From assembly GCA_001780285.1 (NCBI GenBank), contig MFGN01000006.1:1-63241 (forward strand): DNA of 63,241 nucleotides, in the 5' to 3' direction. Below, piece by piece: positions 2,626 through 62,543 of the stretch. The notes under the pieces were generated by a model. It did not search any database. It saw nothing but the letters and a program-made list of their open reading frames with translations, and was not told where the DNA came from. Every line of letters starts with the position of its first letter. Positions within the stretch are counted from its first letter, which is position 1. Source of the DNA: Candidatus Falkowbacteria bacterium RIFOXYD12_FULL_34_57 (GTDB lineage: Bacteria > Patescibacteriota > Patescibacteriia > Patescibacteriales > UBA12075). Made by a program: the position numbers and the translations under genes.

Positions 2626-5600
2626 TTACCAAGTAACAGCTTTAAATTTGGGCTGTAAGGTCGGATCTCCCATAAGAATATAATCATTGTCCCAACAATT
2701 ACCGGCGACACGAAGCTTCAAAAACATTTCTCCTGTAGTCAGGTTCGCATCTTCTCCTAAATATTTGATTCCATTGGTGATTATATTGCCACTAGAAGTC
2801 CAGGCTATGCCTACTGCACCAACATAGCCAAGCGCCCCCCTTCTAATCATATGCGCGCCAAAATTTCTATTGGTATATTGCCAATAATCATTAGTCAAAC
2901 AGGCGGTTCCGATAGAAACCGTCATATCAAGCCAGGGAATATTATTATAATCCATGGTTTGATACCAAGCATATGGACTACCATGATCAGCAAAACTAAT
3001 ATAGTTTTTATTTTTATAAACACTATATGGTGGATTTTTACTTTGCGTGCAATTAGCCAAGCTATCTTCTGTGTAACAGCTAGCGTTATAACCCGAAGCT
3101 GTTAACTTGTCCCGAATTTCTTTGGAGTAATTACTACAATAAGCAAAAGAGTGCCCCACAGACACACTGCTCCAATTAGCGCCGTAAATTTTATTTCTTA
3201 AATAGTCATAATTAATGCTGCGCGCAATATGAGCAGAAGCATCAGCTACGGATATACCATATATTCTTCCGGTATTTATTTGGACATCCACATTATCAAG
3301 AGAACCATATACCCAGTCCCGGGGTGCTCTATGTTGCCAAGAACCAGTACACTGATCATCGTAAACAGAATCCGGCAGGGCTCTGGGGGTAGCGATAATA
3401 GTTAAAAAATCCGGCGGATTGACAAAAAAATTATTTATAGCATAAGCAGCGTCCGTGTCAGCCTGTGCGGCATTTGCCGTAATCACGGCGCTGGCACTGC
3501 AGGAAGTATTGGTTCCCGAATCTCCTAAATCAGAAAAGGTTATCACCTCTTCTTTGGCAGCTGCTAAAAAGGGAGCGGCCAAAGACATTTTGGTATACAT
3601 ATCCGCTATAGCTGTACCCTTTTCTGTTGTATAGGATTGAGAATATTTTATAGTTAAATCATTTGGATTAACCAGTATTAATTTATTACTATTTGAGGTT
3701 CCTGAATACCACTTTTGCAACTCTTCTATGGTGTAATCAACCTGACAGGAAGCATTATTATTAATATAGGCTTGAGTCGGACCATCCAGGGTGCCAACCG
3801 TATATATTGTTTTACCGTTAATTATTCCTTGATAACTCGCTAAATTAGAATTATTCACAAAAATTATCGGGCTATTGTGTTCCGATGCGAGTACGCTGGC
3901 GATCAATCCTGATTTATAATCATTATAGTCCACCACCACCAAAGTATTATAACCAGTCCAATAACTAAAATAATCGCTGGCATTAATATTGTTAATATTT
4001 ACAGCATTCATTCCGGCTCCAACGGGTTTGGATGCTACTAATAAATTGTTTATAGCGGCCAAAGTGGTGCCCACAGTGGTTAAATGATCGGGTTCATATT
4101 GCTGCATGAAGTGAATACTGGAATCCACATCAAAATTACCAACCTCTTTATGATAAATAAGGGACGGATAAGCATGAATCGTGTTTCCGTCTTTCCATGT
4201 GGTAACCGGCACCATAGCTAAAACATCGCGCCAATTTTCATCAGCAATAAAAAATACTTCTTTCGCGCTATATTGGGCATTGTTTTTAGTATTGCTTATC
4301 GCGCATCCGCCGTTAATAGTGATATTCACAGAAGTATTAACAGTCGCGTTCACGGCATCTTTAACTGTAAAAGTAATCACATGGCTTCCGACCGATAAAT
4401 CATTTTTAAATAATTTATCCCCCGTGCCAAGCGCTCCGTCTATATTAGAATTCCATGAATAATTATATGGCACTACTCCGCCCGTAGCCGAACCAAACAA
4501 AGCCACCACCTCGTCAATACGTTTAAAAACACTATTGGGGGCTGGCGAATTAATTACTGGTAAAACAGGAGACGGCGATGTGATGGTTAAATTAATACTG
4601 GCGCTACCCGTATTTCCCTTGGCATCAATTGTAGTCATGGTTATAAAATGACTCCCAACTGAAAGATTATTGACATTAAAATTTTTCTCCGTGCTAATAT
4701 CCCCATCTAAACTAGAGCTCCATTTAAAGGTATGCGGCCAAACACCCCATTTAAGAACATTTGACACAAAAGATACATCATCCCCTTGTTGAAAAGTGCT
4801 GTTATTCGCAGGGGAATTAATTACAACATCAATTGGGACAAATGGGATTATTTGAAGATAATTAGTTTTAGAAACACTTGCATTGTTAGAGTCTGTCACC
4901 GTAAGAGTAATTGCGTGCACCCCCAAAGATAAATCATCTTTTTGAAAACTGTCCCAATTATCTATTTTAGGGCCAGAAGCATTCAACACTCCAGCTTTGT
5001 CAGATTTCCACAAGTATGAAAATGGAGCTGTACCCCCATCAACGCTTGCACTAAACCAAACAGTAAACATTTCTTCCATATTCTGACCATTGTGTGGACC
5101 CATATTTGCAATTATAAAATCAGATATTTTAAATGTTTCAGTATCTGTAACCACATTACTGGCACTATCGGTTACTGTTAGCGTAACTTGATGATCTCCA
5201 AGTGTCCAAGACGACACATCAACACTGGACCATTGATCTGTAGCAAAATCCCCTTCTAAATTAGAATTCCACTTGAAAATATAAGGGGTGGCTCCGCCAC
5301 TAACCTGAACACCGAAATTAGCAGGCCTGGTTGGGTCCCTGGCAAACTCCGTTTGCCAAGTATCAATATTGGCTATAAGAGTACCTGCCGGTAAAATATT
5401 TATTTGGATATTATCGGAATTTGCTTGACTGGCAGAGTCTGTAACGGTGGCGGTGATTATATGCGTTCCAATGGTCCACAAAGACACATCCTGCCACGGC
5501 CATTGATTAGTAGAAAAATCTCCTTCCAGATTAGAATTCCAGTTAAATGTATAAGGAGGTGTCCCACCTAAAACCAAAGCTTCAAAACTAACACCACCAA

Positions 5601-31423: not shown

Positions 31424-31612
31424 AAGCCTGAAAGGCTTTTTGAAGTCTCCGCCTGAGGCGGACACAGCGCCTTTCCATGCCCGCCTCAGGCGGGGGCGTG
31501 GTGAATAATGGAATAATAATAAAAAAATAATCCCCCTTCGGGAGATCCCCCACAAGATGAAGCCATATAACAGATATGGGGTTAGGGGGAAAATTCCTAT
31601 ACGATTAAAAAA
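31424..31612. repeat. Intergenic GC-hairpin repeat element, copy A
   Basis: aaaagcctgaaaggctttttgaagtctccgcctgaggcggacacagcgcctttccatgcccgcctcaggcgggggcgtggtgaataatggaat...aatcccccttcgggagatcccccacaagatgaagccatataacagatatggggttagggggaaaattcctatacgat. Almost identical to 53768..53987. Confidence 0.9.
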
Positions 31613-38743: not shown

Positions 38744-39025
38744 ATGAAATTTCGGTTGCAATTTTGGAGTTCTGCAGAACTGGGTATCTTATCAAGAAAA
38801 GATGTTGAAAAATACTGCTTCATACACGCCATCCAAGAGGAAACTGATATAAACAAGCTCAACGAAGAAAATTTTCAAAACAATGAATATACCGAAGCTA
38901 TGACGCTTCAAGAAATTCAACTATTCATAAAAAAAGATCCGGAAAAATATATCGGCCGCGATGCGCAAAAATGCATCGGAGTTTGTCTTGAAGAATGTTA
39001 CGGCGAATTAATCACCTTTGAATAA
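38744..39025 (+). CDS. Small hypothetical protein (93 aa)
   Basis: The track ORF starts at 38633, but AGGAGG at 38732-38737 precedes the ATG at 38744 (MKFRLQFWSS...). TTGACA-16-TAGTAT lies at about 38637-38664. A terminator lies at 39049-39074. Confidence 0.6.
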   Translation: MKFRLQFWSSAELGILSRKDVEKYCFIHAIQEETDINKLNEENFQNNEYTEAMTLQEIQLFIKKDPEKYIGRDAQKCIGVCLEECYGELITFE

Positions 39026-39048
39026 TAAATCAAAATAAAACAAAAAAT

Positions 39049-39074
39049 GCGAAGCAACAATGCTTCGCTTTTAT
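39049..39074 (+). terminator. Intrinsic terminator
   Basis: gcgaagcaacaatgcttcgc followed by ttttatttt. Confidence 0.8.
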
Positions 39075-39154
39075 TTTTATTTCCAACAATAAAATACGAA
39101 CATTCTTTTAAAAATAAACGACTTGGCTATAAACTTATTTAAACTAACAATATA

Positions 39155-53767: not shown

Positions 53768-53987
53768 AAAAAAGCCTGAAAGGCTTTTTGAAGTCTCCGC
53801 CCAAGGCGGACACAGCGCCTTTCCATGGCCGCCCCAGGCGGGGGCGTGGTGAATAATGGAATATCTAATATTAAACACTTTTACCCTTTATAAATAGTAA
53901 AAAATAATCCCCCTTCGGGAGATCCCCCACAAGATGAAGCCATATAACAGATATGGGATTAGGGGGAAAATTCCTATACGATAAAAA
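53768..53987. repeat. Intergenic GC-hairpin repeat element, copy B
   Basis: Near-identical to copy A, with loop substitutions in both GC hairpins and an extra AT-rich block of about 40 nt (53863-53905) that is shared with copy C. Confidence 0.9.
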
Positions 53988-54029: not shown

Positions 54030-55145
54030 TTATCTGGTAGCCCCACTGTAAGTTATTGCTTGCATAGTGTTCCACTCATCGGTGGTCCTCGGTAATTTTC
54101 CAAAAATATCCTTAAAAATCTTTATTCCTTGTCTTTCCGAATTCAAATTTCTATTTTCGGCCTTTTGACGAAGCCCATAAGCCATAACTTTCACGGCCGC
54201 AGCATCATTTGAATTATTCATATCCGGAAAGCGCAAATAAATCTTCTTAAATTGCTCTTTGGCTTTATTTTCCGCTTCTTCGCTAAATCTGCTGGGCCAG
54301 CGTCCATTAGCAATTTTAATTGCATCAGCCAATTCGGTTTCATCTTCCGGTAATTTACCAAAAGCCTCTTTAAATGAATACATCACGGCGGCCCGCTCTC
54401 CCTCTCCAAGCTTCTTGGTATTATCATCCACCCCATAGGTGATAAATTGATTAATAGAATTCTGCATAGCTTCGGTTACAACAGATACGCCGATTAAAAG
54501 TTTTTGCAAATGCTTAATTTGATTTTGTTGTTCCTTAACCAAACTTCTGAGCTCTTTTAGTTCAGACAATATATCATCTAGCTGGCTATTTTTTAATTTT
54601 TCCGCATTTTTTTCTATTTTTTGAATCTGCTCATCTCTCGTACATTCTCCATAATAAGCTTTTTGTATACCCTTGCTATCTAAAACACATTTATTAGAAT
54701 AAGTTTTTCCATCTTTTCCGCATACCGGAGTATAATCCATAGTACAGGCTGTTGAATTATCTCCAATAGCAACTTGGATTTGATTACTATAAATTCCGCA
54801 TTTACCACCCAAGTATTCACAAACACGAACATGATAGACACCGCTGCCTGTAAACGCAGTTACTGTATCGTGATTGTACTCGGGGCTGGAAGAATAGTTA
54901 TACTTATCTCCTTCTCGCAAAGGATAAGTTGGATTTTCATTTTTTGACCAAACCAATTTAAACCCCTGAGATGAATAACCGTCCGCAACCCAGCTGACAT
55001 TCGCGCCATCCGCAGTAATAATAATTGACTTTACACTGTTTGTATCTGTTGCACTAACTCCTTCATTATAATTACCAAGCGCAGGCGATGAACTCAGCAC
55101 AAAAATAAAACAAGCGACTCCTAAAATTTTTTTTAAATTCTTCAT
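54030..55145 (-). CDS. Secreted protein with a Kazal-like domain
   Basis: 371 aa. Signal peptide is [25 protein letters not shown] beta-rich N-domain is followed by [35 protein letters not shown] (Kazal core Y.PVCG.DG.TY.N.C), then a coiled coil and a helical C-domain. Confidence 0.75.
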
Positions 55146-55195: not shown

Positions 55196-56278
55196 TTACA
55201 AAGAAATAATAAATTTCTTTAAAATATTATAAAATTTTTCTATCTGAGATATATCCACCCACTCATCTTGACCGTGTATGTTTCCTGAATCAATTTTAGT
55301 CAAAATAACCGGAATATTTTTTTCACAAAAGAATCGCGCATCAGACGCTCCGGTTTCCCTGATGAATTTTATTTTTTTACCCATCTCTTTTTCCGCTGTC
55401 TTCTTATAATCCTGAATATATTTATTTTTCATATCCTGTTCAAAATAAAAACCATTCACTAAAACTTCAAAATTATCCGTAATTTTTTTTATCTTCTGTA
55501 AAACAATTTTTCTTTCTTTTTCATTCGCCAATCTGATATCTAAAAACATCTCCGCATAATCCGGAACCTTGTTGATTGCTCCTCCTCCTGAAATTTTGCC
55601 GATATTCAAGCTGTTTTTCCACTGGTTTTTTTTAATATCCGGAATTTCTTTTTTAATCTGAAAATATATTTTCATTAATTTCTCTACGGCATTATCGCCC
55701 AAAAAGGGCCGAGAGCCATGAGCGGATATGCCCCGAGCCCACACCCTGATATGCATAATACCCTTTTCCGCCATAACCACGGTATCCAAACCGGTTCCTC
55801 CGTCGGGAATAATAGCGCAATTCGAACTATAACCGGCTTTCTTAAGCAAATAACCGATTCCATTCTCACCGCCCACCTCTTCGTCGGTAGTCAGAATGAG
55901 TCCTATATTCGGTTTTTCTTTTACCTTTGAAAAATATTTCATGATCTCTATCATTACGGCACAAGCCGTTTTCATATCGCCCGATCCGCGTCCGCAAAGC
56001 TTATGGCCGATTATTCCGGGACAAAAATCATTTTTTTCAGCCGGCACCACATCCAAATGTCCGTTTAAAAATAATTTTGGATTTTTCGTTTTTTGCAAAG
56101 TAATAATCAAAGAAGGAACATTCTTGTAAATAATTTCCCGGACATAAACATCACACTCGGCAAACTCCTGATAAACAAACTCAATAATTTTCTTTCTAGT
56201 CCGAAAATTATCATGCGTGCTTTCAAATCTAATTAATTTTTTAGTCAAATTTATTATTTGTTTGGTATTTTGATTCAT
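55196..56278 (-). CDS. M20-family metallopeptidase (ArgE/DapE/CPG2-like)
   Basis: 360 aa. Has LNGHLDVVP, GRGSGDMK, LTTDEEVGGENG and GISAHGS. Confidence 0.85.
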   Translation of the reverse strand: MNQNTKQIINLTKKLIRFESTHDNFRTRKKIIEFVYQEFAECDVYVREIIYKNVPSLIITLQKTKNPKLFLNGHLDVVPAEKNDFCPGIIGHKLCGRGSGDMKTACAVMIEIMKYFSKVKEKPNIGLILTTDEEVGGENGIGYLLKKAGYSSNCAIIPDGGTGLDTVVMAEKGIMHIRVWARGISAHGSRPFLGDNAVEKLMKIYFQIKKEIPDIKKNQWKNSLNIGKISGGGAINKVPDYAEMFLDIRLANEKERKIVLQKIKKITDNFEVLVNGFYFEQDMKNKYIQDYKKTAEKEMGKKIKFIRETGASDARFFCEKNIPVILTKIDSGNIHGQDEWVDISQIEKFYNILKKFIISL

Positions 56279-56371: not shown

Positions 56372-56400
56372 AAAAAAAAGGGTAAATTATTTTACCCCTT
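56372..56400 (-). terminator. Intrinsic terminator after ATP-grasp 1
   Basis: Minus strand: aaggggtaaaataatttaccc followed by tttttttt. Confidence 0.8.
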
Positions 56401-56406
56401 ATTTTT

Positions 56407-57555: not shown

Positions 57556-57803
57556 TTACTTTTTCCTCCTTTTGTTGGTATTTTTAGTTAAATTTATAAA
57601 ACTTATATATTAAGCTACTATTTTAAAAGAACAAAAAAACCGATTGCTTTTAAACAATCGGTTTTGGTATTTGAATTTTTAATTCACTAATTTACATAAC
57701 CAAAACCGATCCAACTAACAGTTGAATCAAAATAATAATTAAATTCTGGTTGAATATATTTTTCATATTGGATTTATTATAACACAGCCATAAAAAAAAT
57801 CAA
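57556..57803 (-). promoter_or_regulatory. Promoter plus leader-ORF transcription attenuator L1 (Ile/Leu-rich)
   Basis: TTGATT (57798-57803), 16 nt, TGtTATAAT (57776-57781), 9 nt, ATG. S0 is AACCAGAA (57744-57751). S1 is AUCGGUUUUGGU (57699-57710). S2 is ACCAAAACCGAUUG (57655-57670). The terminator is 57633-57665 with U7. Confidence 0.7.
57692..57766 (-). CDS. Leader ORF L1 (24 aa)
   Basis: MKNIFNQNLIIILIQLLVGSVLVM. Its stop codon directly follows segment S1. Confidence 0.5.
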   Translation of the reverse strand: MKNIFNQNLIIILIQLLVGSVLVM

Positions 57804-57827
57804 GAGGCATCTGTTTTTGATGCCTCT
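57803..57827. terminator. Hairpin terminator after ATP-grasp 2 / element C
   Basis: agaggcatc-tgttttt-gatgcctct with T/A runs on both sides. Confidence 0.7.
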
Positions 57828-57838
57828 TTTATCTTTTT

Positions 57839-57965
57839 CAAGAAAAGCCTGAAAGAATTTTTGATGTCCGCCTCAGGCGAAAGCGTAATGAATAACAAAA
57901 TATTTAATGTTAAACATTTTTTTACTTGATAAATAGTAAAAAATAGAAATTTCTATACGATTAAA
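57839..57965. repeat. Intergenic repeat element, decayed copy C
   Basis: Reads aagaaaagcctgaaagaatttttgatgtccgcctcaggcgaaagcgtaatgaataa...taaacatttttttacttgataaatagtaaaaaata...tttctatacgattaaa. It retains the ends and the AT-rich block of copy B. It lacks one GC hairpin and the whole CCCCC/GGGGG module. Its end overlaps the stop codon of ATP-grasp 2. Confidence 0.8.
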
Positions 57966-59148
57966 TTAATTTTTCAAATTTTTCCTTAATCCGCAATATT
58001 TCCTCCTCGTTATTTCCGAGAAAAACCACGCCGATGCTGCCATAGAGGACACTTCCCCAGTTAATAACCACCACTCCGTTCTTTTTAGTCCGATCATAAG
58101 CCAACTCGCTCAAATCCAAAAAATCCAAACTGCTATGATTAATATCATAAGACATACTGTTCCAATTTCTGGCACCAAGGCGTCTGGCTACCAAAAGCGG
58201 GTATGAAGCACCGGTATATCTAGGATTACATTCCAACATTTTATACTGATTACCGTTATTAGTTTTAATTACGGCCACATCTATACCAAAATAACCGCGC
58301 ATTCCATTCTTATACATATAATTTGCTACCGGATCGGTAATTGGGCGCAAATCATACGACACCGGCCCCCGATTTCCCTTATAAATAGCGCCGTCCAGAA
58401 TCTGTTCGGTGGTAGCCACAAAACTCAGCCCCGCATCAGAGATATAATATTGCGCGCTGGCAAAAACATCTGTTCCGGCATCTTCCTGAATCTGAAAACG
58501 GCAACCATCCTTCACATTTTCTAAATATCGACAAACCTCATCCATGCTTTTTACTGTCTCTGAGCCCATACCGGAAATAGATTTAGATAGTTTCAACCAT
58601 TGTTTTTTGGAAAAATCAATATTTGCATTATCTAATTCTGCACGAGAATTAAAACAAGTGGTTTTCGGAATAGCTAAACCTAGTTTTTGGCACAAAATTA
58701 TAAAATCATTTTTTTCATTCATTTCTTTAACAATTTGATGCCAAGAATCGTTTGGTATAGACTCATGAGCTTTATCACCGAAGAAAAAAACAGATAACCC
58801 ATAATCACGAAAATTCTTAAGCAAATTGCCGGTAGTTACAAAACTATCATTCCATATTATACTTCCGGCAACTTCCAGACCCACTTCCCGATAATGGCTG
58901 CTTATCCATGGATATAAGCCTTTTAAAGCTTGATTAAACTGTACAACATCTTCTTTGTGCGTAATGCAAAAAACTCTGCTGGCATGACCGCGCACGCCAA
59001 GCTTTTCGGATAATTCTTCTGAATCAGCATACTCATTAGACTCTTTTGATACTTCCCTGATAGGGTAATCACCGACTGCGTCAGTAACTTCATGGTTGAT
59101 AACCATTCCAATCTCTCCGTCCGTCCTGTGGTTTAATACTTCACTCAT
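57961..59148 (-). CDS. ATP-grasp fold ligase, paralog 2 (substrate unknown)
   Basis: The track ORF starts at GTG 59151. The ATG at 59148 (MSEVLNH) lies 6 nt after AAGGAG. Has WLKLSKSISGMGSETV, RFQIQED and ECNPRYTGASYP. Confidence 0.8.
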   Translation of the reverse strand: MSEVLNHRTDGEIGMVINHEVTDAVGDYPIREVSKESNEYADSEELSEKLGVRGHASRVFCITHKEDVVQFNQALKGLYPWISSHYREVGLEVAGSIIWNDSFVTTGNLLKNFRDYGLSVFFFGDKAHESIPNDSWHQIVKEMNEKNDFIILCQKLGLAIPKTTCFNSRAELDNANIDFSKKQWLKLSKSISGMGSETVKSMDEVCRYLENVKDGCRFQIQEDAGTDVFASAQYYISDAGLSFVATTEQILDGAIYKGNRGPVSYDLRPITDPVANYMYKNGMRGYFGIDVAVIKTNNGNQYKMLECNPRYTGASYPLLVARRLGARNWNSMSYDINHSSLDFLDLSELAYDRTKKNGVVVINWGSVLYGSIGVVFLGNNEEEILRIKEKFEKLI

Positions 59149-59405
59149 CACTTTCTCCTTTTTTGAAAAATTAAATTGATAATATATTACTAAAAAATTT
59201 CAAGGAACAAAAAATATAACTAAAAAACCGATTCTTTTCAAATCGGTTTTTTGTATGTCATTTAAAATTTTAATTTAAATTTTTGCACACACCAAAACCG
59301 ATCTGCTAAAAAAGTAGAAAAAGAAAAATGAATAGGTTTTGGTGATTAAATTTTTCATAAATTTATTATTATATACATGATAGCAAAAAATATAACAAAA
59401 GTCAA
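59149..59405 (-). promoter_or_regulatory. Promoter plus leader-ORF transcription attenuator L2 (Phe-rich)
   Basis: TTGACT (59400-59405), 17 nt, TATCAT. A TATAAT (59368-59373) lies 9 nt before the ATG. S0 is CACCAAAACC (59335-59344). S1 lies within 59286-59304. S2 is 59241-59257. The terminator is 59222-59250 with U6. Confidence 0.75.
59275..59358 (-). CDS. Leader ORF L2 (27 aa)
   Basis: MKNLITKTYSFFFFYFFSRSVLVCAKI. Confidence 0.55.
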   Translation of the reverse strand: MKNLITKTYSFFFFYFFSRSVLVCAKI

Positions 59406-59443
59406 TAGTTTTTGATTACTTTTTATATGTTTTTGCTAATATT

Positions 59444-59473
59444 AAAAAACTCGCCTTATTTATAAAGCGAGTT
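59444..59473 (-). terminator. Intrinsic terminator after 59488..59862
   Basis: Minus strand: aactcgc-tttataaataag-gcgagtt followed by ttttt. Confidence 0.7.
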
Positions 59474-59487
59474 ATTTCTGAAAAAAA

Positions 59488-59862
59488 TTATTTATGAAGA
59501 GAAACAATTTCCTCTCCAATGGTTGTAAAATTGGCATCCAGCCATTCCGGAAGCCTTTCGTTTAATTCCCGGATGCATTCTTCTTTTTCCAAATCTTGAT
59601 GTTTTTTATAAATTTCCCAAAATATCTTAAGGCCTGTGTGAGTATTACTGATAATTCTTATAGCTACCTCTTGGTTTGGAACAATATTTTTTTCTTCATG
59701 ATCCACACAGGAAAATTTTACAACATATTTATCGTTTAAGCTGATAAACCCGGATTGCAATAAAAATCTATCCACATCTTTTAACTTAAGTTTTTCAAAA
59801 AGCCTCTCAAACATAGCGACTTTCATCAATTTTTCTGTCATTACCTTCTTCTTTTCTGTCAT
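59488..59862 (-). CDS. Hypothetical protein (124 aa)
   Basis: AGGAGG precedes the ATG. The start region contains an 18-nt direct repeat (59831-59848 and 59852-59869) that duplicates the SD-like GAAGG plus ATGACAGAAAA. Confidence 0.55.
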   Translation of the reverse strand: MTEKKKVMTEKLMKVAMFERLFEKLKLKDVDRFLLQSGFISLNDKYVVKFSCVDHEEKNIVPNQEVAIRIISNTHTGLKIFWEIYKKHQDLEKEECIRELNERLPEWLDANFTTIGEEIVSLHK

Positions 59863-59889
59863 TACCTTCCTCCTTTTAATTTTCTGTAT

Positions 59890-60351
59890 TTATTTCCAAA
59901 ATATTTGAACGTGTAAATTCTTGATGCCGTGTTCGTGTTTTCTGCAAACCCCCCTGATACCCAAAAGATTGTTCTGAATAGCCCCGGAAAAACCGGGAAA
60001 ATTTTTCAAATCTCCGCTTTCCAGCAAAGCCCTCTCTTCTTCTTTAAGACGCCTGCTGGTCTCAATCCGGATAAAAAAACCATTTTTTTCTTCTTTTTCT
60101 TTCTGTGATGCCAGCACATATATGGGCGTACCGGCCGGAGTTTCAAGATAGGGATTCAGGAAACAATCCCATTCTTCCCTCATGCATCGAAAAAGACCGC
60201 TGATATTTTTTAATAAATCATTCAAAAATTCATCCGGCAAATACCGATACTGGCTGCGCATATCATCTACATAATCTGCAATCTTTCCCTTCAATCCATT
60301 ATCCTGATACTCAGGAATACTGATTATTTTAATAAATGCCTGTTCTGCCAT
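59890..60351 (-). CDS. Hypothetical protein (153 aa)
   Basis: TAGGAGG lies 5 nt before the ATG. No recognisable motif. Confidence 0.55.
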   Translation of the reverse strand: MAEQAFIKIISIPEYQDNGLKGKIADYVDDMRSQYRYLPDEFLNDLLKNISGLFRCMREEWDCFLNPYLETPAGTPIYVLASQKEKEEKNGFFIRIETSRRLKEEERALLESGDLKNFPGFSGAIQNNLLGIRGVCRKHEHGIKNLHVQIFWK

Positions 60352-60444
60352 TTCTACCTCCTATGGTTAATAATTAAGTTAATGTACAAATAAAAATATA
60401 TAAAAAACTTTAAAAACAAAGTTCAAAATATGTTAGCACAAAAA

Positions 60445-62016
60445 TTAAATTGTGTCAAGTCTGGGAAAAAGCGAATCCCCGGGCTGTGCCTTTGTATCAC
60501 TTTTTAATAAGCCAAATTTAATATTATCTTCCAAATTCTTGGAAATCTCTTCATGAAAATCAAGCCCCAGTCTTGTTATTATTTTTTCGGATACTTCCGG
60601 CATAAAAGGAAAAAGCATCAGGGCCACATGCCTCAATCTCTCTAAAATATTATACATAATAATACCAGTATCTTTATTTCCTTCCTTAATCATTACCCAT
60701 GGCTGATGCTCGGTAATATAGCCGTCTAAATATTTTTGTTCATTCATAACCACTTCCAATGCCTTGTCAATTTCAATATTTTTCATATGATTTTTATAAT
60801 CTTTCCAATTCTTATTAATGTCTTTATTTAATATGCGTCCGCCCCATTTTTTTAATTTTTCTTCAGTATCCGGCCTTTCAACGCATACGGGAATACTTAA
60901 ACCAGCCAGGCGCATTTTGTCTGCCAAGGTTATAGAACGCGCAACTAAATTACCAATACCATTAGCTAAATCAGCATTGAACTTCTCATTGAATTTTTCC
61001 CAAGAAATATCACCATCGCGACCAAAAGTAGCAGCGCTCATTAGCAGGTAACGCGTACCATCCACGCCGTATTTTTGTACCAAATCTCCAGGCGCAATTA
61101 CATTACCGATGGATTTACTCATTTTCTGCCCGTCCACCAAAAAATAACCGTGCACGAAATATTTTTTAGGTAAAGGAATTTCCAATGCCAAAAGCATTGC
61201 TGGCCAGATGCTGGCATGTACCCGCAAAATATCTTTAGCCATTAATTGCACATCAGCAGGCCACATCTCCGGTACTTTCTTCGGATCTCCGGTCCAGCCG
61301 ATTCCGGTTAGGTAGTTCAAAAACGCCTCCATCCACACATAGGCCGTATGTTCTCTGTCCCACGGAAGCTCTATTCCCCACTTTATATTCTTGCGAGAGC
61401 AAGCAATATCCGCAAGACCATTATTTTTATAAAAACTCAATACTTCATTTTTGCGGGTTTTGGGACGAATCTTAAATTCATCGCCCTCAATTTTTTTAAG
61501 AAGCTCGTCTTGAAAAGCGGAAAGTTTGAACATATAACAATCTTCTTTCATTTCCTCCGGCTCCGTGCCATGATCCGGGCACTTGCCGTCTACCAAATCT
61601 TTCTCGGTTTTATACTGTTCACAACCGACACAATAGAGCCCCTTATACTCTCCTTTGTAAATAAAACCTTTATCATACAAATGCTGCAAAGCTTTTTGTG
61701 AAGCTTTTATATGGCGCTTATCAGTTGTGCGAATAAAACCATCATTGGTAATAGCCAAATTATCCCAGACTAACTCAAATTTGGCGACAAGCTCATCTGT
61801 AAACTCCTGCGGAGATTTTCCTGCCCTTTTGGCATACTCAGCTATTTTAGCTCCATGCTCATCCGTCCCTGTCAGAAAAAATGTCTTATCTCCAACCATC
61901 CGGTGAAAACGCGCTAAAACATCAGCAGCGAGAGTAGTGTAAGTACTGCCAATATGCGGATCAGCGTTTGCATAATATATCGGAGTGACTACATAAAATT
62001 TATTTTTTGAACTCAT
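60445..62016 (-). CDS. metG: Methionine--tRNA ligase (short form, no C-terminal tRNA-binding appendix)
   Basis: 523 aa. Has ADPHIGSTYT (HIGH), a CVGCEQY...CPDHG zinc knuckle and KMSKS. Its own TTGCAT-17-TACTAT promoter lies at about 62040-62068. Confidence 0.93.
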   Translation of the reverse strand: MSSKNKFYVVTPIYYANADPHIGSTYTTLAADVLARFHRMVGDKTFFLTGTDEHGAKIAEYAKRAGKSPQEFTDELVAKFELVWDNLAITNDGFIRTTDKRHIKASQKALQHLYDKGFIYKGEYKGLYCVGCEQYKTEKDLVDGKCPDHGTEPEEMKEDCYMFKLSAFQDELLKKIEGDEFKIRPKTRKNEVLSFYKNNGLADIACSRKNIKWGIELPWDREHTAYVWMEAFLNYLTGIGWTGDPKKVPEMWPADVQLMAKDILRVHASIWPAMLLALEIPLPKKYFVHGYFLVDGQKMSKSIGNVIAPGDLVQKYGVDGTRYLLMSAATFGRDGDISWEKFNEKFNADLANGIGNLVARSITLADKMRLAGLSIPVCVERPDTEEKLKKWGGRILNKDINKNWKDYKNHMKNIEIDKALEVVMNEQKYLDGYITEHQPWVMIKEGNKDTGIIMYNILERLRHVALMLFPFMPEVSEKIITRLGLDFHEEISKNLEDNIKFGLLKSDTKAQPGDSLFPRLDTI

Positions 62017-62094
62017 ATTTTTATTAAATTTATTGCTTAATTAACTACTTTAATAGTATCTAAAAAACCAAATCAATGCAAATAATAGATAGAT

Positions 62095-62119
62095 AAGACC
62101 CGACACTTTGTCGGGTCTT
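62095..62119 (-). terminator. Hairpin after the 62-aa gene
   Basis: aagacccgaca-ctt-tgtcgggtctt. The U tract is weak. Confidence 0.55.
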
Positions 62120-62127
62120 GGCACGTT

Positions 62128-62316
62128 CTACTCTACAAAGAATATAATTTTTGATTCTTCTCCCCTTTTGATTTCTTTAATTTGATATATAGGCACAAAC
62201 ATCCGAATCGGTCTTTCTGCATTTCCTGCATTATACCCTTTAGCTTTTTCATAGTTTTTTAATTTCGTAAATTCTTCTGCGGAAAAAAATACCTCTACTG
62301 TTGCATACTGCGTCAT
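62128..62316 (-). CDS. Small hypothetical protein (62 aa) controlled by attenuator L3
   Basis: GGAGG lies 8 nt before the ATG. Sequence is MTQYATVEVFFSAEEFTKLKNYEKAKGYNAGNAERPIRMFVPIYQIKEIKRGEESKIIFFVE. Confidence 0.6.
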   Translation of the reverse strand: MTQYATVEVFFSAEEFTKLKNYEKAKGYNAGNAERPIRMFVPIYQIKEIKRGEESKIIFFVE

Positions 62317-62543
62317 TTTTTTGCCTCCTTTTTGGGTTATTAAAGAACTATTGATTAAAAATTAAAAAAACCGATTATTTTTTAAATAATCGGTTTTTAT
62401 ATATGTAATTTTAATTTTGATATCAAATATTTTTACACATTAAAACCGACCTGTTTTAACCAAAACAGGTGCATGTATGAATAGATTCTTGTGTAAATAT
62501 TTTTCATATATTAAATACTAGCAAAGAAAAAAATATCAGTCAA
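62317..62543 (-). promoter_or_regulatory. Promoter plus leader-ORF transcription attenuator L3 (Tyr/aromatic-rich)
   Basis: TTGACT (62538-62543), 17 nt, TAGTAT (62515-62520), 7 nt, ATG. S0 is UUUACACA (62490-62497). S1 is UCGGUUUUAAUGUGUA. S2 is UACAUAUAUAAAAACCGAUUAU. The terminator is 62364-62398 with U7. Confidence 0.65.
62433..62507 (-). CDS. Leader ORF L3 (24 aa)
   Basis: MKNIYTRIYSYMHLFWLKQVGFNV. Confidence 0.45.
   Translation of the reverse strand: MKNIYTRIYSYMHLFWLKQVGFNV

Follow-up and report, generated by a model that had tools for sequence, protein, structure and literature searches.

A question raised by the 63,241-nucleotide stretch of Candidatus Falkowbacteria bacterium RIFOXYD12_FULL_34_57 analysed here (contig MFGN01000006.1, positions 1 to 63,241; the whole stretch is referred to below as the window) is what purpose is served by three short open reading frames (ORFs) of 24–27 codons, each of which has a terminator hairpin with a U-run downstream and lies 80–140 nt upstream of a gene. 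It could be argued that these units, designated L1, L2 and L3, encode small proteins, that they simply end transcripts, or that they control the genes that follow them. The initial annotation of this DNA favoured conservation of the units as RNA rather than as peptide. The evidence now in hand comprises the sequences themselves, the alternative pairings that they permit, covariation between relatives, and codon runs that are conserved by residue class and specific to one reading frame. On this evidence we consider it highly probable that L1–L3 are ribosome-mediated (leader-peptide) transcription attenuators of the trp/phe/ilv type. All coordinates given for the three units and for the genes discussed refer to the minus strand.

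Anatomy of the L1, L2 and L3 leaders

The leader ORFs are located at 57692-57766 (L1, 24 codons, MKNIFNQNLIIILIQLLVGSVLVM), 59275-59358 (L2, 27 codons, MKNLITKTYSFFFFYFFSRSVLVCAKI) and 62433-62507 (L3, 24 codons, MKNIYTRIYSYMHLFWLKQVGFNV). All three start with ATGAAAAAT and carry near their end, around 55 nt into the ORF, a core of the form (A/G)UCGGUUUU, which appears as GGAUCGGUUUU in L1, AGAUCGGUUUU in L2 and AGGUCGGUUUU in L3. In each unit the complement of the core, AAAACCGAU, is found in the 5' arm of the terminator, while AUCGGUUUU occurs again in the 3' arm. The core is read as UCG GUU UUG (S V L) in L1 and L2 but as GUC GGU UUU (V G F), one base out of phase, in L3. The shared start, the core, its complement in the terminator and the reading of the core in two frames had all been described in the initial annotation, and each was confirmed in the three units.

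The specificity of this arrangement was assessed in the source genome by a scan that covered the 63-kb window. The sequence AAAACCGA is present in 13 copies against an expectation of 4.3 +/- 2.0, a number reached by none of 100 shuffles, and nine of the 13 copies fall inside the L1–L3 units. Around 70 terminator-like hairpins, built from many different stem sequences, are present in the window; only those of L1–L3 use this sequence, and only L1–L3 have an upstream copy of the terminator 3' arm. The suggestion, made beforehand, that the hairpin might be no more than the generic terminator of this genome is thus not borne out within the window, where the combination of hairpin and upstream copy is confined to the three leaders.

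An intrinsic terminator, consisting of a 12–14-bp hairpin and a U-run, separates the leader ORF from the gene in all three units. When the RNA is folded from the AUG, region 1 (nucleotides ~12–25, codons ~4–9) pairs with region 2, enclosing a small inner hairpin, and the terminator 3:4 forms after it. In folds computed without the terminator 3' arm, region 2 is instead paired with the 5' arm of the terminator and with the 6–8 nt that precede it. RNAalifold, applied to the three units together, returned the same terminated fold, including the 1:2 anti-antiterminator, with compensatory changes in the inner hairpin and in the inner terminator pair. Pairing of the core with the terminator had been proposed without a region 1; here a region 1 is shown to pair with the core, and the predicted arrangement is the four-segment layout of classical leader-peptide attenuators.

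In L1, region 1 (ACCAGAAUU, 57743-57752) spans codons 5–8 and pairs with GGUUUUGGU of region 2, while region 2 itself (GGAUCGGUUUUGGUU, 57698-57712), which contains the core and is separated from the stop codon by 4 nt, can pair with either region 1 or region 3. The segment 57629-57669 holds region 3 (UACCAAAACCGAUUG) together with the hairpin of the terminator (AAAACCGAUUGUU/AGCAAUCGGUUUU, followed by a U-run). In L2, region 1 (CACCAAAACC, 59334-59345) forms 10 bp with GGUUUUGGUG of region 2 (AGAUCGGUUUUGGUGUGUGCA, 59283-59305), a duplex with a free energy of -15.9 kcal/mol and a z-score of -3.5 against dinucleotide shuffles; region 3 (GACAUACAAAAAACCGAUUU) and the terminator (AAAAAACCGAUU/AAUCGGUUUUUU plus U-run) lie at 59216-59260. 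In L3, where region 2 (AGGUCGGUUUUAAUGUGUA, 62434-62452) overlaps with the stop codon, the inner hairpin ACCUGUUUU-GGUU-AAAACAGGU stands upstream of region 2, and 62360-62405 contains region 3 (CAUAUAUAAAAACCGAUUA) and a terminator, AAAAACCGAUUAUUU/AAAUAAUCGGUUUUU, with its U-run. The 2:3 duplex is stronger than dinucleotide-shuffled controls in L1 (-19.2 kcal/mol, z -5.0), L2 (-19.9, z -6.1) and L3 (-15.6, z -4.9); indeed it beat the shuffles in all ten units tested, window and relatives together, with z-scores from -1.9 to -9.9. Relative to the end of region 2, the start of the stop codon ranges from 1 nt upstream to 6 nt downstream in the window units, and from -10 to +20 nt across the 17 units considered below.

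This anatomy suggests how the leaders would work. A sigma-70-type promoter would start transcription at, or a few bases before, an AUG that lacks a Shine-Dalgarno (SD) motif, and the nascent RNA could then adopt one of three pairings: 1:2; 2:3, in which the core AUCGGUUUU is paired with AAAACCGAU; or 3:4, in which region 4, made up of AUCGGUUUU and the U-run, would cause termination. With the amino acid plentiful, a ribosome at the stop codon would occlude region 2, 3:4 would form and transcription would stop. If the charged tRNA for the codons of the run were scarce, the ribosome would stall early within codons 9–17, covering region 1 and freeing region 2, and the resulting 2:3 antiterminator would allow the downstream gene to be transcribed. 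A leader that is not translated at all would be expected to form 1:2 and 3:4, and hence to terminate.

Covariation and codon runs among relatives

Relatives were found by collecting contigs that encode Parcubacteria-type members of the ATP-grasp family, to which the products of the genes behind L1 and L2 belong, and by scanning metagenomes with the family alignment. The syntenic relatives are labelled Candidatus Falkowbacteria, Candidatus Moranbacteria, Parcubacteria group or Patescibacteria, and several are unbinned metagenome contigs that carry no taxonomic label. The same design, with another core, is present upstream of orthologous ATP-grasp genes at loci L083, L095, L097, L099, L103, L105, L109 and L178, and before other genes at L003, L054, L099, L178 and, on the opposite strand, L105. 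At least 13 distinct loci, from several genomes, belong to the family. The core differs from one relative to another (GGGAGGUUUU, ACCGGUUUUU, GCCAGUUUUU and GACGGUUUUGG are among its forms), with matching differences in its partner segments; AUCGGUUUU is a genome-specific version and not the motif that defines the family.

As MAFFT failed to register regions 2, 3 and 4 of the divergent units, covariation was evaluated by duplex-matching permutations and by covariance-model alignment instead. Across 17 units, region 2 pairs with region 3 of its own unit at a mean of -19.5 kcal/mol against -11.7 kcal/mol for mismatched partners, and none of 20,000 permutations was as good (p ~5e-5); the corresponding values for the 1:2 duplex are -15.4 and -10.0 kcal/mol (permutation p ~5e-5). 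R1, a covariance model derived solely from L1–L3, scored these three units at 146–156 bits, compared with 25.9 bits for the best other full-length match in the window and 30 bits for the best partial match, which covered a terminator only. A weak R1 match at 38921-39091 was rejected as a leader, as it consists of the 3' end of a 130-aa ORF and the terminator of that ORF. Among the fetched loci R1 recovered independently found relatives over their full length at 23–46 bits. The covariance-model search proposed with the initial annotation, run on the window and on these loci, showed R1 to be specific to L1–L3 within the window and recovered further members of the family outside it.

In the alignment of 11 sequences made with R1, the terminated fold has 90% of cells paired, compared with 73% for shuffled columns and 35–59% for slid registers, and 19 of its 28 pairs show double (compensatory) changes; none of 500 shuffles was as high. 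The alignment was fitted to the R1 structure and so favours the fold that was modelled. The antiterminator helix, in contrast, was not used in making the alignment; it has 93% of cells paired, against 30–66% in slid registers, and double changes in four of its 11 pairs. Because both the terminated fold and the antiterminator covary, both alternative structures are under selection. Together with the matched duplexes, and with a core frame that varies among units, the compensatory pairs uphold the proposal that RNA pairing is selected irrespective of the frame in which the core is read.

How far the design extends was explored with two broader searches. A generic detector, which combines a terminator with an upstream 2:3 duplex and an ORF that ends at region 2, gave 73 matches in 1.26 Mb of fetched DNA and 13 in the reversed sequence, an imperfect control since reversal destroys most hairpin-plus-U-run sites. 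At the more distant ATP-grasp homologues, which come from cyanobacteria and marine mats (L084-L094 and most of L113-L184), the detector found no leader. The exact three-part DNA pattern occurs at 79 loci in 185,579 representative species genomes (596 Gb, a set that excludes the window's own genome), nearly all of them generic AAAACCGA terminators in unrelated phyla; the useful matches were only L003, L053/L073 and L054.

The second line of evidence concerns what the ribosome would read. Codons 9–17 are situated between regions 1 and 2, and in all units the run lies just upstream of region 2. In L1 these codons specify LIIILIQLL (eight of nine Ile/Leu) and in L2 YSFFFFYFF (eight of nine aromatic), while those of L3, YSYMHLFWL, are mixed (Y/M/H/L/F/W), with four of nine aromatic. 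Tabulated across the units, the runs fall into two classes, aromatic and branched-chain. When each of the 17 units was classed by its richest nine-codon window, 11 were richest in aromatic residues, nine of them strongly (6–9 of nine F/Y/W) and two, L3 (4/9) and L105p (5/9), weakly; the other six were richest in I/L/V, four strongly (6–8 of nine) and two, L099b (4/9) and L054p (5/9), weakly. In the ORF frame the runs contain 74 aromatic residues, whereas the remaining frames give 25 and 28; branched-chain residues number 39 in the ORF frame and 14 and 8 in the others, a contrast that is somewhat inflated because the nine-codon window was picked in frame 0. Judged from its codons, the peptide is constrained by residue class, in a frame-specific manner, and is not otherwise conserved. 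The earlier argument that selection acts on RNA pairing rather than on the peptide stands in its first half, as covariation shows the pairing to be independent of frame, but has to be amended in its second, since the codon run is itself conserved by class and in one frame. By the composition of their runs, L1 is predicted to sense Ile/Leu(/Val) and L2 Phe/Tyr.

The relatives that precede ATP-grasp genes illustrate both classes. Aromatic runs are seen at L083 (core GGGAGGUUUU, run WVFFYFFF), L095 (core ACCGGUUUUU, WFYFNFYGFF), L097 (core GCCAGUUUUU, LFFNFYYFWF), L105 (WLFFDFF), L109 (FYFYWFF) and L178 (NFYWFGFFY), and a branched-chain run at L103 (core GCGGUCU, LLIIVFLIL), which lies just after leuS. 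Before other genes, the second leader of L178 (ILIGLILIV) and that of L003 (YSFYYFFFWFF) each precede two small proteins, the leader of L054 (FWFSFYF) precedes small proteins, and the two leaders of L099 stand before a 45-aa and a 151-aa protein, with the ATP-grasp and M20 peptidase genes after the 151-aa gene. On the opposite strand of L105, a leader with the Phe run WNFFFFF precedes a class I/II aminotransferase (Pfam E 2.5e-66), and this pairing of run and gene counts in favour of attenuation.

Three further features of the relatives may be recorded. Cores are near-identical within a genome, as with AUCGGUUUU three times in the window, GCCGGUUUUGG and GACGGUUUUGG in L099 (units at 3869-4020 and 4209-4365), GGGAGGUU(C) twice in L178 (1900-2085 and 2748-2955) and in the three units compared in L054, and they differ between genomes; cassette duplication, concerted evolution, or slow drift, given that three or four segments must change together, could each produce this pattern. 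The L054 contig (CAYUCS010000002.1), which carries an ATP-grasp and M20 pair with three leader-like units, is labelled uncultured Gammaproteobacteria, so that either the family extends beyond Parcubacteria or the label of the bin is wrong. Finally, a stretch of ~200 nt between the leader terminator and the ATP-grasp start at L105 (2790-2990; also L106 ~640-840 and L107 ~620-820) holds a 20-bp perfect inverted repeat, ggaattcatcctttagaatttt ... aaaattctaaaggatgaatttc, which may be a second regulatory structure.

Translation start and alternative explanations

Each window leader is preceded by a predicted promoter. That of L1 (57776-57803), recognised by consensus match only, combines a -35 TTGATT (57798-57803), a 16-nt spacer and TGt-TATAAT (-10 at 57776-57781), the TATAAT ending 9 nt before the ATG. 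The best candidate for L2 (59377-59405) has a -35 TTGACT (59400-59405), a 17-nt spacer and TGc-TATCAT (59377-59382) and stops 18 nt short of the ATG; a second candidate, TATAAT (59368-59373), is closer, at 9 nt from the ATG, but its -35 is poor. In L3 (62515-62543), TTGACT (62538-62543), a 17-nt spacer and TGc-TAGTAT (62515-62520) place the -10 element 7 nt before the ATG. Where a unit has a clear promoter, this is in most cases a good match to TTGACx - 16/17 nt - TGnTAnnnT just upstream. The distance from the -10 element to the AUG is 6–9 nt in about half of the units with a clear promoter (L1, L3, L095, L103 and two L054 units) and 13–27 nt in L003, L097, L099a, L105p and L109, as well as for the better candidate promoter of L2. 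A Shine-Dalgarno motif was looked for before 17 leader ORFs, including L1–L3, and was found before none of them, unlike the target genes, which carry AAGGAGG-type motifs that are strong in all three window targets.

From these sequences we infer that the promoters of L1–L3 are used, that the ORFs are translated, that ribosomes stall on them and that regulation results. RNA and ribosome-profiling runs were searched for the locus, and none contained it. The initial annotation had placed the ATG 7–9 nt from the -10 element in all three leaders and had proposed leaderless translation. The spacing is as described in L1 and L3, whereas the best promoter of L2 is 18 nt away; the absence of SD motifs in 17 of 17 units and the spacing in L1 and L3 fit a leaderless start, but the 13–27 nt seen in the remainder do not. 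Promoter spacing in L1 and L3 is compatible with a leaderless start, L2 is ambiguous, and the feature would not be universal. As the spacing is 6–9 nt in some units and 13–27 nt in others, the general feature is more probably an SD-less AUG on a very short or absent 5' untranslated region, followed by A-rich codons, than a strictly leaderless start. A parallel is offered by the leaderless polycysteine short ORFs of mycobacteria, which are reported to act as Cys-responsive attenuators (bioRxiv 10.1101/834739), and in which a sensor ORF at the 5' end of the transcript likewise reports on one amino acid to the operon. That system, as described there, belongs to another phylum and responds to another amino acid; the window units, moreover, carry an explicit intrinsic terminator/antiterminator pair, and a leaderless start would apply to some of them only.

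It could be argued that the leaders, although attenuators, sense general or drug-induced ribosome stalling, as erm- and cat-like leaders or those responding to translation stress do, and not a specific amino acid. The mixed codons of L3 and L099b would be expected of such a device, hydrophobic nascent chains can themselves slow ribosomes, and the targets are not classical biosynthetic genes. It should be emphasized, however, that two clean classes of run (F/Y/W and I/L/V) are kept across species when the rest of the peptide is not, that a Phe-run leader stands before an aminotransferase, and that no resistance-type genes lie downstream. We consider general stalling unlikely.

About the same low chance attaches to the view that the switch is real but is not read by the ribosome, with a protein, tRNA or small ligand choosing between 2:3 and 3:4 in the manner of TRAP, PyrR, T-box or riboswitch systems, and the ORF being incidental. 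The alternative helices, which such a switch would require, are the best-supported feature of the units; ORFs of 24–40 codons are not rare by chance, and L3 is devoid of a clean codon run. Against this, no T-box or riboswitch model matched even at E <= 10, and outside the helices there is no conserved unpaired sequence fit to serve as a ligand or protein site. Nor would an incidental ORF explain why all 17 units have an AUG ORF just after the promoter that stops at or just past region 2, or why the codon runs are class-conserved and frame-specific.

That the short ORFs are functional hydrophobic micro-proteins, such as membrane peptides or toxins, with terminators of their own and an upstream copy of the arm derived from cassette duplication, is very improbable. 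L1-type peptides do look like transmembrane helices, and the near-identity of cores within the genomes of the window, L099, L178 and L054 is consistent with duplication; the peptides, however, are unconserved beyond residue class, the core is read in different frames, regions 1, 2, 3 and 4 co-vary between genomes, and only a regulatory role makes sense of a terminator placed directly before a promoterless gene that has a strong SD. That the pattern is due to chance, or is the generic terminator of an AT-rich genome, can be dismissed almost entirely, for although terminators of the form AAAACCGA...UCGGUUUU are widespread among bacteria, the majority of the 79 matches to the three-part pattern look like chance and ATGAAAAAT alone is a common 9-mer in the window (12 copies against 6.1 expected), the enrichment, terminator scan, duplex z-scores and R1 scores, together with the covariation, refute it within the window.

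Leader-peptide attenuation itself does not account equally well for everything observed and, besides the fitted alignment mentioned above, several points weigh against it. The 1:2 pairing of L3 is no better than that of shuffled sequences (z -0.2) and is also weak in L003, L099b and L103. L3 lacks a clean codon run and the codons of L099b are mixed. Only 3–5 nt separate the end of the run from region 2, so that a ribosome halted at the final codons would cover part of region 2, and antitermination should follow only when stalling occurs early in the run. The stop codons of L003 and L083 are 16–19 nt beyond region 2, about the limit of what a ribosome terminating there could occlude. Downstream of L1, a terminator-like hairpin (56375-56402, minus strand) separates the ATP-grasp gene from the M20 peptidase gene that follows it (55196-56278), and co-regulation of the latter by L1 is therefore not assured; the physiological logic of placing a predicted ATP-grasp/M20 pair under the control of L1 and L2 is, more generally, conjecture.

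Target genes, known attenuators and biological meaning

The gene behind L1 (56407-57555) encodes a 382-aa ATP-grasp ligase (Pfam ATP-grasp_3) and has the strong SD AAGGAGG, while that behind L2 (57961-59151) encodes a 396-aa paralogue assigned to the same Pfam family. The two enzymes are only 41% identical, which indicates that the duplication is old, yet the pairing blocks of their leaders are identical. The family is rare. It is accompanied by an M20 peptidase in the window, L054, L095, L097, L099 and L109, and in convergent orientation in L103; a C26-type hydrolase takes the place of the peptidase in L083. Compared with the PDB, the family profile finds LdmS (7R8P, E 2.8e-11) as its closest solved relative by sequence, followed by BL00235 (3e-4), and other L-amino-acid ligases match more weakly than LdmS. 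An AlphaFold2 model of the L2 target (pLDDT 88) has as its top Foldseek matches 8ynd, 7r8q, 8yi6 and 3wvq (TM 0.63-0.73), being closest to a Streptomyces ATP-grasp peptide ligase (8ynd), LdmS, BesA and PGM1. The modelled fold resembles that of L-amino-acid ligase-type ATP-grasp enzymes, with dipeptide and peptide ligases as the nearest relatives. In Staphylococcus aureus, the L-aspartate-L-methionine ligase LdmS (PDB 7R8P/7R8Q) is encoded in an operon with the M20D peptidase HmrA (PMC9486568), and there, as here, an L-amino-acid ligase is paired with an M20 peptidase in amino-acid metabolism. LdmS and the enzymes described here are, however, only ~15–17% identical, and the ligase role of the latter is a prediction. 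Two other roles for the ORFs and targets were considered and rejected: precursors of ribosomally synthesized and post-translationally modified peptides for ATP-grasp maturases (graspetides), as the peptides have no Thr/Ser/Asp/Glu/Lys cores and are unconserved apart from the codon runs, and a LysW/LysX/LysK-like carrier system, suggested by the 62-aa protein behind L3, which ends in Glu, for which there is no supporting homology.

The L3 target (62128-62316) encodes that 62-aa protein, an orphan preceded by a strong SD, for which a search of 5.8 billion proteins gave no relative. The small proteins encoded behind leaders in L003, L099, L178 and L054 are likewise orphans, with no detectable similarity to one another. 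After the L3 target come a hairpin with a poor U-tract and then metG (60445-62016, 523 aa). The metG ATG is without a Shine-Dalgarno motif (aataaaaatATG), unlike its neighbours, and has a promoter-like site, TTGCAT-17-TACTAT, upstream. Either metG or leuS adjoins the ATP-grasp locus in the window, L083, L099 and L103. Downstream of the M20 gene, at 54030-55145 (minus strand), is the gene for a secreted 371-aa protein with a Kazal-type protease-inhibitor domain (Pfam E 3e-11), a neighbour that is also kept in L099-L102. Elsewhere in the window, the terminator hairpins ATCTCCC-gaa-GGGGGAT and AAGCCT-ttc-AGGCTT are both present at 31424-31546 and again at 53771-53923 (minus strand), which points to a repeated segment.

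Comparison with known systems clarifies what is new. A scan of the window with Rfam gave no match to leader families at gathering thresholds, only two tRNAs and sub-threshold noise; the best leader match, RF00513 Trp_leader, reached 18.7 bits against a gathering threshold of 41 (E 3.6), and the units are not members. They share with the trp attenuator the four-segment logic of 1:2, 2:3 and 3:4, with predicted superattenuation when the leader is not translated; here, however, the codon run lies between regions 1 and 2 and not inside region 1. The E. coli pheA (pheL) and pheST (pheM) leaders place a run of Phe codons in a short ORF, downstream of which antiterminator and terminator helices exclude each other, a logic matched by L2 and the relatives with aromatic runs. 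The likeness does not extend to sequence or to an Rfam relationship: the runs of the present family mix F, Y and W, its leader ORFs are SD-less and predicted to lie at or near the 5' end, the host of the window units is a member of the Parcubacteria in the candidate phyla radiation (CPR), and the targets in the window are ATP-grasp ligases and not chorismate mutase or phenylalanyl-tRNA synthetase. Similarly, a run of branched-chain codons controls terminator read-through in the E. coli ilvGMEDA, ilvBN and leu leaders, as is proposed for L1, L103 and L178a, but the targets of this family are not enzymes of branched-chain amino-acid biosynthesis and no model matched. To our knowledge, CPR genomes generally lack pathways for the biosynthesis of these amino acids. 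The Corynebacterium ilvBNC attenuator (PMC11857589) is reported to be a further example of such control. Full-text literature searches that combined leader peptide or attenuation with Patescibacteria or CPR returned nothing relevant. L1–L3 and their relatives constitute a new family of a well-known kind of regulator, set apart by its lineage, its targets, its mixed F/Y/W runs and its SD-less sensor ORFs.

A more far-reaching proposal, which we put forward only tentatively and regard as rather less likely to be right than wrong, is that the ATP-grasp paralogues are each specific for the amino-acid class of their own leader, aromatic for the L2 target and branched-chain for the L1 target, and that with the M20 dipeptidase they capture, buffer or release scarce amino acids in organisms unable to make them, forming an unrecognised homeostasis module of Parcubacteria and the CPR. 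Were this so, the codon run of the leader would be a readable label of enzyme specificity.

CPR bacteria (Patescibacteria) either have not been cultivated or grow only with difficulty; very few regulators can be recognised in them, and for the most part they do not synthesize amino acids. Since the mechanism proposed for L1–L3 is itself a textbook one, the value of the family lies in the taxon, the targets and the leverage that it offers for annotation. The sensor ORFs, being SD-less and possibly leaderless, are also of interest for the initiation of translation in CPR organisms. The leaders also provide a functional hint, in that they tie a rare ATP-grasp family, M20 peptidases, an aminotransferase and orphan small proteins to the supply of aromatic or branched-chain amino acids. 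Finally, the family suggests that the charging of specific tRNAs is monitored in at least some Parcubacteria, which would respond to it at the level of transcription.

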